Positions 1,957-4,927 of a stretch of 37,343 nt of DNA are shown piece by piece (position 1 is the stretch's first letter; the number at the start of each line of letters is the position of its first letter). The notes under the pieces are model-generated. The model was not told the origin of the DNA. It searched no databases and saw only the letters and a list, made by a program, of their open reading frames with translations. The DNA is from Bacilli bacterium. Lineage in GTDB: Bacteria; Bacillota_I; Bacilli_A; RF39; UBA660. A program made the position numbers and the translations under genes. The stretch is taken from assembly GCA_045636525.1 (NCBI GenBank), contig JAZTXT010000040.1:1-37343 (forward strand). The letters are read 5' to 3'.

Positions 1957-1995
1957 AAGTAATATAAATTTTCTACATATTTTAACACAAAAGTA

Positions 1996-2310
1996 TATTT
2001 TACATATAATAATCTTAAGGTGATTATATATGAATAATACTGAAGATAGAGAAGTCAAAACCGTTGTAATAGATCCAGGACATGGAGGTTCGGACGCAGG
2101 TGCTGTAGGAAATAATATATTAGAGAAAGATTATAATTTATTAATATTACAGTATATGTTTGATAGATTTAAAGAGCTGGGTATCCTCGTAGCGATTACA
2201 AGAGATTCAGATGTAACATTATCACCGACTGATAGAACAAATAGTATATTATCTAAGTTCGGTAATTCAAGTGATGTAATAGTAATATCAAATCACTTAA
2301 ATTCCGGAGG
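1996..2310 (+). repeat. Left copy of a 315-bp direct repeat (amidase promoter-proximal region, RBS and first 94 codons)
   Basis: Aligns colinearly with 11369-11683 without indels. I counted about 31 substitutions by hand (~90% identity). Similarity stops right after the shared ccggagg (2304-2310 / 11677-11683). Confidence 0.85.
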
Positions 2311-2344
2311 TAGGGTAAGTAAAATTGCAATGGATGAAATATAA
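2030..2344 (+). pseudogene. Truncated N-acetylmuramoyl-L-alanine amidase (N-terminal 94 codons, then 10 unrelated codons and a stop)
   Basis: MNNTEDREVKTVVIDPGHGGSDAGAVGNN... matches the N-terminus of the intact amidase at 11403..12770 (9 aa differences in 94). It then diverges (RVSKIAMDEI*) and lacks the rest of the Amidase_3 domain and all LysM repeats. Confidence 0.8.
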
Positions 2345-2397
2345 GGTGCATAACTTCGTAAGCTCCTTGAATTATCGGCAAAATTTAATATTAGTTC

Positions 2398-2425
2398 TTG
2401 CTTTTTTATAAAAAATGTATATAAT
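2398..2425 (+). promoter_or_regulatory. Predicted sigma-A promoter driving the RT leader
   Basis: TTGCTT (2398-2403), a 16-nt spacer, then TATAAT (2420-2425). The predicted transcription start (TSS) is near 2432-2434. The same TTGCTT/TATAAT pair is predicted upstream of rnj. Confidence 0.5.
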
Positions 2426-2431
2426 ATATAT

Positions 2432-2748
2432 TGCCACGGTAATTTGTACTCGTGGGTGTTAAATGTTAATTGTCAATACTATATTGATAATTATTAAGTT
2501 AAAGTTTACGTTCATAACTGAACCACCTCGCTTTGACTGAATTGTTGATATTAGTAATGTGAAGAATTGAACTAACATAGTCAATATTCTATCTACTATT
2601 ATTATACAATAATTAATGTAAGAGGTGCAGCATTAAAAGGGACTAAGTAAATTTTGTATTGTGAAGAATAAAAATTGAAAGGTATTGTTGAACACATCCA
2701 ATAATGGTGGCTGCAACCAGGATGTGTTTCTTCAATTTTAGGAGGAAA
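2432..2748 (+). ncRNA. Candidate structured non-coding leader / RT-associated ncRNA
   Basis: About 320 nt lie between the predicted TSS and the RT start, and no plus-strand frame is open for more than ~25 codons. Hairpins are present at 2434-2455 (8 bp with 1 bulge), 2467-2493 (12 bp including one G-U) and 2510-2523 (5 bp). A bipartite helix pairs 2671-2679 with 2731-2739 and 2691-2699 with 2720-2728, and ends at the Shine-Dalgarno sequence. Confidence 0.4.
2501..2523 (+). repeat. Left copy of a ~22-23-nt imperfect direct repeat bracketing the RT ORF
   Basis: aaagtttaCgttCataactgaac (2501-2523) versus aaagtttaTgtt-ataactgaac (4160-4181) gives 21 matched positions. Each copy can fold into a small hairpin with an ataac-containing loop. 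Confidence 0.6.
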
Positions 2749-4101
2749 ATGAAAAAGAAAATATTTAAACCAAGATATTATCAACATATTGATAAGGTAA
2801 TAGATATAAAAGATGTTGAGAAAAAAATTAAAAATAAAGATTTTGTAATTAACCATGGTTTTTATCCTTTTTTAAGTTATACTATTGAATTTAAAAAATT
2901 TTCTAAAGAAATAAATGAAGATACTAATCATCATTGGAAGATTAAAGAGAGACCGATCAAATATGCAGCACATATAGATAGGTATATATATCAATGGTAT
3001 TCTTATAACTTGAATAATTGTTATAATGAATATTGTGATAAAAATGATTTGAATGAGTCTGCTATCGCTTATAGGACTTGTTTAAAAGGCAAAACAAATA
3101 TTGATTTTGCAGCTAAGGCAATCAATTTCATAAAAAAATATGATTCATGTTATATATTAGTTAGTGATTTTACAAGTTTCTTTGATTTTATAAGCCATGA
3201 TAAATTAAAAAATAATATGTGCAAAGTTTTGAATGTTGAGAAATTAGAAGAAGATTGGTATAGAGTTTTTAAAAGCATGACTAAGTATTCTTATGTCGAA
3301 AGATATGATGTTGAAGAATTTTTAATTAACAATGGAATAGAAACAAAGGAAAGTATCAAAATTAGAAATAGTCTTTTTGATAATATTTGTTGGAAAGATG
3401 CAAAGAAAAAAATTCGCGATAAGATAAACATAAATAAAGAGGAATACGGAATACCACAAGGATCTCCTTTAAGTGGAGTATTTGCAAATGTTTATATGAT
3501 TGATTTTGATATTAAGGCTCATGATTATGCCAAAAGTAAAAATGGATTATATATGAGATATTCAGATGATTTAATAATGATAATACCTAAAAATGAAGTT
3601 TCATCAATTAGTAAAGTATGGGAGGAACTTAGTGCTATAAAAGAAGAATATCCTACATTAAAAATGAATATCGATAAAACTTCAGGGTATGTATATGAAA
3701 ATAAGCAAATTATTTCTTTGCATGAACAAATTGATGGAATGCAAAAAGGTGGAAAATTTATTAGTTATCTAGGTTTTTCTTTTGATGGAAAATATATCAG
3801 ATTTAGAGATAAAACTTTGACTAAGTTTTTTTACAAACTTTATAGAAAAATAGATTCTATGGTATTAAGAGAAAAATATAGAATTCAAAAAGGAAGAAAA
3901 AAACATACTAAAATAGATAAACATAGGATCTTAAAAGAATTGAATTCTAGTCAAGGTGAAAGTAGAAAGTTTATTGATTATGTTAATAGAGCAAAAAAAG
4001 TGTTTTCAAACGAATATTATATAGTTAATTTCAGGAAAAATATTAAATCTAAAATTTTTGAAAGATTTGAAAAAGAGAAAACGAGAATTAATCAAGTTTA
4101 A
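2749..4101 (+). CDS. Stand-alone reverse transcriptase (UG/Abi-like, defence-associated RT candidate), 450 aa
   Basis: RT motifs are present in order: IKERPIKYAAHIDRYIYQWY (RT1/2), SDFTSFFDFISH (RT3), IPQGSPLSGVFANVYMIDFD (RT4), YMRYSDDLIMI (RT5, catalytic YSDD), NIDKT (RT6) and ISYLGFSF (RT7). The start is set at M16 of the track ORF because AGGAGG (2740-2745) precedes ATG 2749. The same short AGGAGGAAA(T)ATG spacing is used at 541. There is no maturase, nuclease or other fused domain. Confidence 0.85.
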   Translation: MKKKIFKPRYYQHIDKVIDIKDVEKKIKNKDFVINHGFYPFLSYTIEFKKFSKEINEDTNHHWKIKERPIKYAAHIDRYIYQWYSYNLNNCYNEYCDKNDLNESAIAYRTCLKGKTNIDFAAKAINFIKKYDSCYILVSDFTSFFDFISHDKLKNNMCKVLNVEKLEEDWYRVFKSMTKYSYVERYDVEEFLINNGIETKESIKIRNSLFDNICWKDAKKKIRDKININKEEYGIPQGSPLSGVFANVYMIDFDIKAHDYAKSKNGLYMRYSDDLIMIIPKNEVSSISKVWEELSAIKEEYPTLKMNIDKTSGYVYENKQIISLHEQIDGMQKGGKFISYLGFSFDGKYIRFRDKTLTKFFYKLYRKIDSMVLREKYRIQKGRKKHTKIDKHRILKELNSSQGESRKFIDYVNRAKKVFSNEYYIVNFRKNIKSKIFERFEKEKTRINQV

Positions 4102-4159
4102 TTGTGTAATAATTTAGATTCAATTAATTTAAAATATTATTTAAAATAAGAATAAGAGA

Positions 4160-4181
4160 AAAGTTTATGTTATAACTGAAC
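4160..4181 (+). repeat. Right copy of the direct repeat bracketing the RT ORF; part of a weak terminator-like hairpin (tatgtt-ataactg-aacata followed by ggcttttttt)
   Basis: See 2501-2523. It is followed by a T7 run at 4188-4194. Confidence 0.55.
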
Positions 4182-4256
4182 ATAGGCTTTTTTTCTTTGT
4201 GAAAAAAAGATTAAATTATTATTATAAGAAATGAAAAAGATAAAAATTATACAGTG

Positions 4257-4531
4257 ATGAGTAATTATAATTTTAATAATACTAATTTAAGTTTAAGTGC
4301 AAAAGGATTGTTGTTATTAATGTTATCTTTTGCTAAACGATTGGAATTTTTTCTATAAATGGATTAGGTAAAAATTTTAATGAATCGAGAACAACCATTT
4401 CAAATACTTTAAAAGAGTTAAAGGACAAATCTTATATAGTTATTTTCGAAGTGCGAGATGGTAATGGCCAATTTAATTATGAGTATATTGTTTATGAAAA
4501 TCCTAATTTTAGTAATCCAGGTACCCATTAA
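4257..4531 (+). pseudogene. Frameshifted winged-helix/HTH gene of the type common on Firmicute phages and plasmids
   Basis: Frame A gives MSNYNFNNTNLSLSAKGLLLLMLSFAKRLEFFL* (4257-4358). A second frame continues as GIFSINGLGKNFNESRTTISNTLKELKDKSYIVIFEVRDGNGQFNYEYIVYENPNFSNPGTH* and ends at 4531. Together they read as one HTH protein broken by a frameshift near 4340-4350. Confidence 0.6.
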
Positions 4532-4547
4532 GGGTACGTGGATTTTT
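4517..4547 (+). terminator. Intrinsic terminator
   Basis: The stem is ccaGgtaccc-attaa-gggtacGtgg, a 6-bp perfect core extendable to 9 bp with one mismatch. It is followed by atttttcg and is unusually GC-rich for this sequence. Confidence 0.6.
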
Positions 4548-4664
4548 CGTATGCGGTATTTTGATATAATTAAGTATTAAAGAATAATAGCTAACTTAGA
4601 TAAAACCGAATATTATAAATTTTTGTCTAAATTTTTTAATTTTTATCAAAAAACGACAAAAATA

Positions 4665-4673
4665 TGTTATACT
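4665..4673 (+). promoter_or_regulatory. Extended -10 promoter element upstream of the AbrB-like gene / hsd operon
   Basis: TGtTATACT at 4665-4673. Only a weak -35 (TTATCA 4643-4648, 19-nt spacer) is present. This places the track's ATG at 4664 inside the promoter. Confidence 0.35.
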
Positions 4674-4705
4674 TAATAAGTAAGGAAAGTAAGGAGAACG
4701 GATGT

Positions 4706-4927
4706 ATGAAAAATAATAATGAACTTTTAGATACAGCAAAATTAACGTCTAAAGGACAAATTACAATTCCAAAACAAATAAGAGATTTATTAAAACTTGA
4801 ACAAGGTGATTCGGTAGTTTTTTATGTTGATGAAAATAAAAATATAAAAATAGCTAATAAAAAAGATTGTACAGTCTTACCTGATGAAAATTCAAAGCAA
4901 GTTGTAGTAAAGAGAGGTAATAGATAA
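4706..4927 (+). CDS. AbrB/MazE/SpoVT-family DNA-binding protein
   Basis: LTSKGQITIPKQIRDLLKLEQGDSVVFYVDENKNIKI is a SpoVT-AbrB swapped-hairpin motif. AAGGAG (4691-4696) lies 9 nt before ATG 4706. Its stop overlaps the hsdM start (TAATG). Confidence 0.75.
   Translation: MKNNNELLDTAKLTSKGQITIPKQIRDLLKLEQGDSVVFYVDENKNIKIANKKDCTVLPDENSKQVVVKRGNR

Follow-up and report, generated by a model that had tools for sequence, protein, structure and literature searches.

A probable DRT2 anti-phage cassette of uncultured gut Bacilli, with a predicted neo-type template in its structured RNA leader

The closest described counterpart of the locus reported here is DRT2 of Klebsiella (KpnDRT2), a defence-associated reverse transcriptase (RT) system described by Tang et al., 2024 (PMC11100668) and Wilkinson et al., 2024 (PMC12039810), with structures 9c0i and 9lje. 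Our subject is a candidate cassette of the same kind, in which an RT gene follows a long non-coding leader, near the start of a 37,343-nt stretch of DNA from a Bacilli bacterium (contig JAZTXT010000040.1 of assembly GCA_045636525.1; the whole stretch is referred to below as the window). In Klebsiella, a non-coding RNA (ncRNA) of ~280 nt lies upstream of the RT and consists of a 5′ hairpin, a template of ~120 nt and a pseudoknotted 3′ scaffold (PMC11100668; PMC12039810). The RT copies this template repeatedly, jumping from an ACA at its 5′ end to an ACA located 3′ of it, and phage infection leads to double-stranded concatemers whose junctions join a −35 and a −10 element at 17 bp (PMC11100668; PMC12039810). 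The resulting neo gene is transcribed antisense to the ncRNA and has a ribosome-binding site and an ATG, followed by a frame that is free of stops; its repeat units are multiples of three, its product arrests growth, and stop codons placed in neo abolish defence (PMC11100668; PMC12039810). Phage-triggered concatemeric complementary DNA (cDNA), neo mRNA, Neo toxicity and defence are known for KpnDRT2 and a few homologues only, and published neo annotation has centred on Klebsiella relatives, the authors having found divergent DRT2 clades harder (PMC11100668; PMC12039810).

We propose that positions 2385-4118 of the window most probably represent a complete DRT2 (UG2) anti-phage cassette with a neo-type mechanism, from uncultured gut Bacilli. 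A system of this kind was already described in 2024, and the novelty is lower than an initial annotation of this DNA had estimated. What the window offers is an extension, in testable form, of the neo gene-synthesis mechanism to a divergent DRT2 clade of uncultured low-GC gut Bacilli, for which template, junction and Neo product can each be given as an explicit sequence. The family of the RT, the conservation and covariation of the RNA, the latent promoter, the open frame and the repeat geometry are established here. The initial annotation had read the locus as a stand-alone UG/Abi defence RT served by a cis-encoded upstream ncRNA, a reading now supported by the Drt2 match, the covarying leader and the neo template geometry.

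The RT is encoded by an intact open reading frame (ORF) on the + strand (ATG at 2749, stop ending at 4101, 450 aa), with AGGAGG at 2740-2745, 3 nt before the start codon. Its YSDD motif occupies residues 271-274 (nt 3559-3570), and in an alignment with 34 homologues Y271, D273 and D274 are invariant and S272 nearly so, while the RPIKYAAHIDR and YLGF motifs are largely kept. The sole Pfam domain match is RVT_1 at residues 68-343, in keeping with the earlier description of a single-domain YSDD enzyme with no fused partner. That description had left the family as not placeable by eye, a gap that profile and structure-sequence matches now close. The PADLOC Drt2 model matches at E = 1.1e-121, with Drt1a, UG39, UG17 and Drt9 next at 1e-17 to 1e-14; the top NCBIfam match is likewise Drt2 (336 bits); and residues 6-422 align, over the full length of the protein, with residues 9-406 of the KpnDRT2 chains in 9c0i and 9lje (E = 1e-54). 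Judged by sequence, the protein is thus a DRT2 (UG2) enzyme, a class 2 UG/Abi RT.

Assignment to the UG/Abi class over retrons or group II introns had been suggested earlier from motifs, and the profile comparison then proposed as a check agrees with it, Drt2 winning by about 100 orders of magnitude over the other families. A retron or group II intron RT could account for the weak generic matches to the RT core, and we regard this as practically negligible in probability. With the retron St85 model the protein reaches 51 bits (cut-off 235), the PADLOC retron models lie far below Drt2, and no Rfam msr was found; with the group II intron model TIGR04416 it reaches 55 bits (cut-off 300), with no maturase or endonuclease domain in Pfam and no intron in Rfam. 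Other class 2 RT-ncRNA systems are DRT9 (UG28) and DRT10 (UG17), which share with the window a stand-alone or small-operon RT and a cis-encoded template ncRNA, but which make protein-primed homopolymers or short tandem repeats and assemble no gene. That the window encodes such a class 2 UG system is highly improbable: its matches to Drt9 (2e-14) and UG17 (3e-15) are weak and reflect shared class 2 ancestry, whereas the Drt2 model is ~100 orders of magnitude better, the alignment with solved DRT2 is full length, the leader has the long-template geometry of neo, and the window lacks SLATT or any other partner gene.

Homologues of the RT are numerous (1131 at E <= 1e-20). Its close clade (50-89% identity) is drawn from metagenomes of the gut and from metagenome-assembled genomes of uncultured Bacilli (for example Candidatus Faecimonas and Coprovivens), and the sole name met with in the source records of these relatives is a generic reverse-transcriptase label. 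For annotation this matters, as the RT falls under the NCBIfam Drt2 equivalog cut-off and the gene in its leader is invisible to ORF callers.

The leader itself is, to judge from its relatives, a conserved and structured RNA. The 404 nt upstream of the RT gene (2345-2748), close to the ~400 nt of non-coding DNA first estimated, contain no credible ORF. We aligned 20 distinct leaders from loci (referred to, where necessary, by L numbers) whose RTs are 51-85% identical, and found a mean column identity of 77% and a consensus structure of 59 base pairs that is 97% paired. Compensatory changes occur at 20 of the 59 pairs, compared with 6.8 +/- 1.5 in column shuffles, none of 500 of which reaches 20, and with 1-7 in controls in which the pairing partners were slid. 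Folded by itself, the window RNA is modestly better than shuffled sequence (z = -2.45). The structured leader with hairpins noticed from the single sequence is supported by the covariation test suggested for it. A further element is a pseudoknot, of which 5/5 pairs are kept in every leader and four are compensatory (in L004, L006/L071 and L010). The parts follow one another in the order known from Klebsiella, namely a 5′ handle hairpin, a template (153 nt, starting at about nt 30 of the RNA) and a pseudoknotted 3′ scaffold, and the RNA, at ~300 nt against 280 nt, is encoded upstream on the same strand as the RT.

A further observation on this RNA concerns GUGAAGAAU, which occurs twice, in the template (2560-2565) and in the scaffold (2662-2667). 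Both copies can pair with the conserved 3′-terminal UUCUUCA (2729-2734), and covariation does not discriminate between the two UGAAGA partners of the terminal UCUUCA. The dual pairing of GUGAAGAAU with the 3′ end may be an alternative pairing or a switch, and it recalls the elongating state of the Klebsiella system, in which the 3′ end of the RNA pairs with a scaffold linker.

The case for a neo gene comes from the geometry of the template. Two copies of AAUGU (2462-2466 and 2615-2619) lie exactly 153 nt apart, so that identical short motifs flank the template as they do in Klebsiella, and the unit is again divisible by three. On the opposite strand, a perfect promoter, TTGACA-17-TATAAT, forms only across the repeat junction, since in the linear locus the two hexamers stand in the wrong order; the 17-bp spacer at the junction demands a unit of 153 nt. 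When the reverse complement of 2462-2614 is concatenated, the junction reads ...TTGACAATTAACATT/AATTATTGTATAAT..., which may also be written ...GTATTGACAATTAACATT/AATTATTGTATAATAATAG... (the slash marking the predicted boundary between cDNA repeats). Three such units contain 0, 39 and 11 stop codons in the three frames. The open frame, antisense to the ncRNA and provided with a ribosome-binding site and an ATG, comprises 51 codons per unit and predicts the very hydrophobic repeat MNVNFNLIIINIVLTININYCIIIVDRILTMLVQFFTLLISTIQSKRGGSV. The ncRNA and its DNA product, formerly given as unknown, can accordingly now be predicted in detail, from the template through the 153-nt repeat junction to Neo.

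This arrangement is also recovered by a scan that uses no motif of the flanking repeats. The scan covers both strands and units of 90-180 nt, requires that the flanks agree over 3 nt and that a cyclic frame be open, and scores the junction promoter. Applied to the stretch beginning at 2345, it returned a unit length of 153 at offset 117, which places the first base at 2462, with a 12/12 promoter match; 2 of 400 dinucleotide shuffles reach 12/12. As a positive control, the same scan recovered a unit of the published type (111 nt, same promoter) from a Photobacterium plasmid locus annotated drt2.

A simpler reading of the stop-free stretch of 171 nt on the − strand (2632 down to 2462), which encodes hydrophobic residues, would make the antisense frame the toxin of a conventional type I toxin-antitoxin pair and the leader its antisense RNA. 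We find this scarcely plausible. Read from the linear genome, the frame behind the ribosome-binding site and ATG runs for only 18 codons before it stops (TAA at 2461-2459); the −10 precedes the −35 instead of following it, which leaves no promoter without concatenation; and the 17-bp spacing, the flanking repeats and the multiple-of-three distance are left unexplained. Like its Klebsiella counterpart, the predicted Neo is hydrophobic and without known domain, a Pfam search having returned no family, but its sequence is unrelated to Klebsiella Neo and more hydrophobic. AlphaFold2 applied to three Neo repeats gave a predicted local distance difference test score (pLDDT) of 64 and a predicted template modelling score (pTM) of 0.45, too low for use.

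The same geometry is conserved among relatives. In 15/20 distinct leaders the unit is 153, 147, 144 or 138 nt long and combines a perfect promoter at its junction with one open frame, and the closest group (L152-L157) shares the multiple-of-three units, the promoter and the frame. The flanking microhomology varies from 3 to 9 nt, and its two copies co-vary, as in UUAUGUU of L074 and UUUA of L010. Beyond this clade, other Bacillota DRT2 loci (L011-L019, L078-L150), mostly from human and animal gut metagenomes, have RTs 35-41% identical to that of the window. They resemble it in the junction promoter, the single open frame and the frame in which the hexamers are read (...LT(T/E/I)I / (N)Y.II...), and differ in forming a separate RT clade, in their Neo sequences and flanking motifs, and in giving no significant match to the scaffold model. 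In most of the distant Bacillota loci (L011-L150), the same scan predicts units of 129-183 nt with a perfect junction promoter and open frame. The window is, in this sense, an ordinary member of a large Gram-positive DRT2 branch. We also observed that the units predicted in the distant loci share a ...LTTI/NY.II... frame over the promoter, and that their flanking motif is rarely ACA. The ACA motif is not universal; it appears that a short repeat of any kind can serve, provided that the two flanking copies are correctly spaced.

How the cassette would work can be outlined by analogy with Klebsiella DRT2, from which cDNA synthesis, a phage trigger, translation and toxicity are carried over to the window locus. 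One promoter most likely gives a single transcript, the first ~305 nt of which would be the ncRNA and the remainder RT coding sequence. The RT would bind the scaffold and copy the template, 2462-2614. At the 5′ terminus of the template, the cDNA complement of the first AAUGU could re-pair with the second copy, and the resulting template jump would yield head-to-tail cDNA repeats of 153 nt. Upon phage infection these repeats would turn double-stranded, and each double-stranded junction would unite TTGACA and TATAAT across a 17-bp spacer. The junction transcript, antisense to the ncRNA, would carry the GAGGTGG ribosome-binding site and the ATG, and its stop-free translation would produce the hydrophobic 51-residue repeat MNVNFNLIIINIVLTININYCIIIVDRILTMLVQFFTLLISTIQSKRGGSV, which may be expected to arrest the infected cell.

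Several differences in detail separate this predicted neo gene from that of Klebsiella. The unit of 153 nt (51 codons) exceeds the 120 nt of Klebsiella and the 111-129 nt of its close homologues. The start codon lies mid-unit, ~85 nt downstream of the −10, whereas that of Klebsiella is close to the −10. The frame reads TTG-ACA as Leu-Thr, while the Klebsiella-like Photobacterium locus reads aTT-GAC-Aat.

A number of observations weigh against the proposal and need to be set beside it. Support for the window locus is computational throughout. Unlike Klebsiella DRT2, the window RT scores below the NCBIfam Drt2 equivalog cut-off (336 against 390 bits). The published ACA-1 and ACA-2, which like the SL2 basal stem were defined on close KpnDRT2 relatives (PMC11100668; PMC12039810), are absent, AAUGU flanking the template in their stead, and of the SL2-like basal stems that we sought (GUGUU:AAUGU and UUAAUU:AAUUAA) neither is backed by covariation. 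An Rfam search of 2300-4300 gave chance-level matches only and no DRT2 ncRNA family, and a covariance model of the 3′ scaffold (R1) found nothing significant in 56 distant DRT2 loci (E = 0.35-0.64); homology to the Klebsiella ncRNA at the RNA level is therefore not demonstrated. The neo frame shows no synonymous excess, with 100 synonymous against 375 non-synonymous changes, like the other two frames. Five related leaders (L007, L069, L070, L073 and L074) have a unit of 152 nt and no endless frame. Finally, the −35 of the ncRNA-RT promoter, TTGCTT, is weak, matching 3/6 consensus positions, and the surrounding AT-rich DNA is full of promoter-like hexamers.

With respect to the promoter, the initial annotation had spoken of a good sigma-A promoter. 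The hexamers and the spacer are indeed present, and the promoter is conserved in relatives; its −35 has half of the consensus positions, which is why it is missing from a consensus scan. That scan found no enrichment of promoter-like sites in the AT-rich region, with 23 sites against 25.8 expected from shuffles. At the aligned positions, relatives have TTGACT, TTGACA or TTGATT together with TATAAT, and the promoter call rests on this conservation, together with a homology to L152, a relative from a different island, that sets in just upstream of the −35 (at ~2385), and not on the match to consensus. The predicted transcription start is near 2432.

The TTGCTT hexamer bears as well on whether the cassette is alive. 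One could suppose that it is an inactive remnant, with an RT or RNA that no longer functions in the source genome, and the flanking gene fragments (a truncated amidase and Fic) and the stop-containing non-coding DNA at 4102-4663 would suit such a history. We nevertheless consider it very unlikely that the cassette has decayed, as the RT frame is unbroken with all invariant residues present, the frame in the template has no stop, and nothing is damaged in the promoter, the ribosome-binding site, the pseudoknot or the hairpins; the closest relatives, located in another island, share TTGCTT.

The missing synonymous signal raises a different question, namely whether Neo needs to be translated at all. 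Tandem cDNA might be made and act as DNA or RNA, independently of Neo translation, for example as a decoy or by soaking up ribosomes or RNA polymerase; sponge effects were considered by the authors of PMC12039810. No codon-level selection is visible in the neo frame, and every repeat would present a perfect promoter and ribosome-binding site. This alternative is unlikely in our estimation: the frame stays open and the units stay multiples of three despite indels of 6, 9 and 15 nt, the neo ribosome-binding site and ATG are conserved, the ATG-to-TAA frame that crosses the junction in the 152-nt relatives makes sense only if translated, and in Klebsiella stop codons abolish defence. Given the lack of synonymous enrichment, the argument for coding is built on the missing stops, the rule for unit length, and the ribosome-binding site with its ATG. 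This lack fits the published remark that template conservation is largely at the nucleotide level.

The 152-nt loci deserve attention in their own right. Four of them (L007, L069, L070 and L073) have RTs ~65% identical, and L074 has the 152-nt unit independently. All keep the TTGACA-17-TATAAT junction promoter, and the leader lies within ~400 nt upstream of each RT gene. When concatenated, each unit contains an ORF of 50 codons that uses the conserved ribosome-binding site and ATG, runs through the junction, without which it would not exist, and ends in a TAA overlapping the next ATG (TAATG), which suggests that the concatemer is a polycistronic array of identical small hydrophobic peptides. 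The window encodes the endless form, unlike these two lineages with the finite form. It is perhaps conceivable, although we put this forward tentatively and would sooner bet against it, that the toxic entity of gut-Bacilli DRT2 is a hydrophobic, possibly membrane-active module of about 50 residues and not an endless polymer per se. If so, the never-ending frame would be dispensable for DRT2 immunity, and gene assembly by an RT could deliver ordinary small toxins. Endless and junction-spanning finite ORFs among relatives provide a natural comparison for how Neo kills or arrests cells.

Table 1. Features of the DRT2 cassette and its surroundings in the window.
Feature	Positions	Strand	Basis
Entire DRT2 cassette, from promoter through ncRNA to RT gene	2385-4118	+	Nucleotide homology with L152
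ncRNA-RT promoter: TTGCTT (2398-2403), 16-nt spacer, TATAAT (2420-2425)	2398-2425	+	Sequence and aligned relatives
DRT2-type ncRNA, ~305 nt, both ends inferred	2432-2735	+	Conservation and covariation
5′ handle hairpin SL1, GCCACGG:CUCGUGG-GU	2433-2457	+	Helix 1, 4/7 pairs compensatory
AAUGU copy 1, template 5′ end, equivalent of Klebsiella ACA-1	2462-2466	+	Identical copy 153 nt downstream
Predicted template and cDNA repeat unit, 153 nt	2462-2614	+	Both-strand scan, concatemer analysis, relatives
Template hairpin holding the −35 complement	2467-2493	+	Helix 2, 11 pairs, 98.6% paired, 2 compensatory
neo promoter −35, TTGACA (TGTCAA on + strand)	2471-2476	−	Invariant in 20/20 leaders
Template hairpin with the neo-start complement and most of the ribosome-binding-site complement	2497-2538	+	Helices 3 and 4, 13 pairs, 95% paired, 1 compensatory
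Predicted neo start, ATG	2513-2515	−	CAT on + strand in 19/20 leaders
neo ribosome-binding site, GAGGTGG, 7 nt 5′ of ATG	2523-2529	−	CCACCTC on + strand in 18/20 leaders
neo promoter −10, TATAAT (ATTATA on + strand)	2601-2606	−	Hexamer kept in all leaders
AAUGU copy 2, just 3′ of template, ACA-2 equivalent, predicted landing site of template jump	2615-2619	+	Comparison of copies
Pseudoknot 5′ strand, GCAGC, 8 nt past AAUGU copy 2	2627-2631	+	Pairs with 2710-2714
Scaffold hairpin with internal loop	2641-2684	+	Helices 6 and 7, 7/9 pairs compensatory
Scaffold 3′ hairpin, AACACAUCC...GGAUGUGUU	2691-2728	+	Helices 8 and 9, 6/13 pairs compensatory
Pseudoknot 3′ strand, GCUGC, in loop of 3′ hairpin	2710-2714	+	Pairs with 2627-2631
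DRT2 reverse transcriptase gene, 450 aa	2749-4101	+	PADLOC Drt2, NCBIfam Drt2, PDB 9c0i and 9lje
MazE/AbrB-like gene and type I restriction-modification genes hsdM, hsdS, hsdR	4664-11313	+	Neighbouring defence cargo, outside the cassette
300-bp direct repeat, left copy: promoter and 5′ part of truncated amidase gene (2030-2344)	1977-2276	+	88% identity to right copy
300-bp direct repeat, right copy: 5′ end of intact LysM amidase gene (11403-12770)	11350-11649	+	Comparison of repeats

The limits of the cassette are drawn from L152, a relative in a different island, whose homology to the window runs from ~2385 to ~17 nt past the RT stop; the cassette would consequently consist of promoter, RNA and RT gene. 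Neither among the window genes nor among the neighbours of the relatives' RTs did we find a conserved effector gene beside the RT. The absence of an adjacent effector, as first noted, is in line with neighbours that vary between relatives and with cassette homology that ends 17 nt after the stop codon; no neighbour gene is common to all the relatives' DRT2 loci compared.

A calcineurin-like metallophosphoesterase of ~306 aa with a C-terminal zinc ribbon does recur beside RTs of the window's DRT2 clade. It lies downstream, mostly overlapping the RT stop, in L004 (4364-5284), L006 (4368-5288), L066 (2862-3785) and L071 (2868-3788), and upstream of the RT in L152 (4740-5663) and L153 (2725-3648), the identity between upstream and downstream versions being 74%; the window has no copy. 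The protein could be an accessory factor or co-travelling cargo. In the closest relatives, the same cassette resides in an island that also encodes an integrase and an AEP primase-helicase. The cargo of this island differs from that of the window and comprises McrBC, the metallophosphoesterase and two Dcm methylases accompanied by an NgoFVII-type endonuclease; in two of these relatives the island ends at the same amidase gene.

In the window, the cassette is followed by a type I restriction-modification operon (hsdM/S/R, 4927-11313), confirming the neighbourhood originally reported; the relatives' DRT2 loci do not have this operon in common with the window. Directly before it, an 87-aa MazE/AbrB (SpoVT)-like gene (4664-4927) ends where hsdM starts (4927), and may be a controller of the restriction-modification system or an orphan antitoxin. 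The ~560 nt between the RT and these genes (4102-4663) contain many stops and short open fragments in the one forward frame that was read, as well as a terminator-like hairpin at 4521-4537. They could be a decayed gene; comparison with the gene located after the RT in L152 (317 aa) revealed no homology. An RNase J gene further downstream indicates a chromosomal location. For neither this RNase J nor the amidase of the window did a look-up of the identical protein return a record.

On the other side of the cassette, 199-1956 encodes a truncated Fic/DOC fragment of 110 aa, a T5orf172/MUG113 GIY-YIG-like gene and an HTH-DnaA_N fusion protein, which looks like further mobile-element or defence-island content. 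The two 300-bp direct repeats bracket the DRT2 cassette, the MazE/AbrB-like gene and hsdM, hsdS and hsdR. The truncated LysM amidase copy at the left repeat is 104 aa long, has its own promoter and lies 9.4 kb upstream of the intact gene. Amidase fragments also adjoin DRT2 in L001, L004, L006 and L071, and the amidase cluster is rich in fragments of 93-110 aa. Together, the duplication and the fragments suggest a hot spot at which integration or recombination has recurred. The intact amidase gene itself contains five tandem repeats of ~150-160 nt (12002-12771), which correspond to its five LysM domains.

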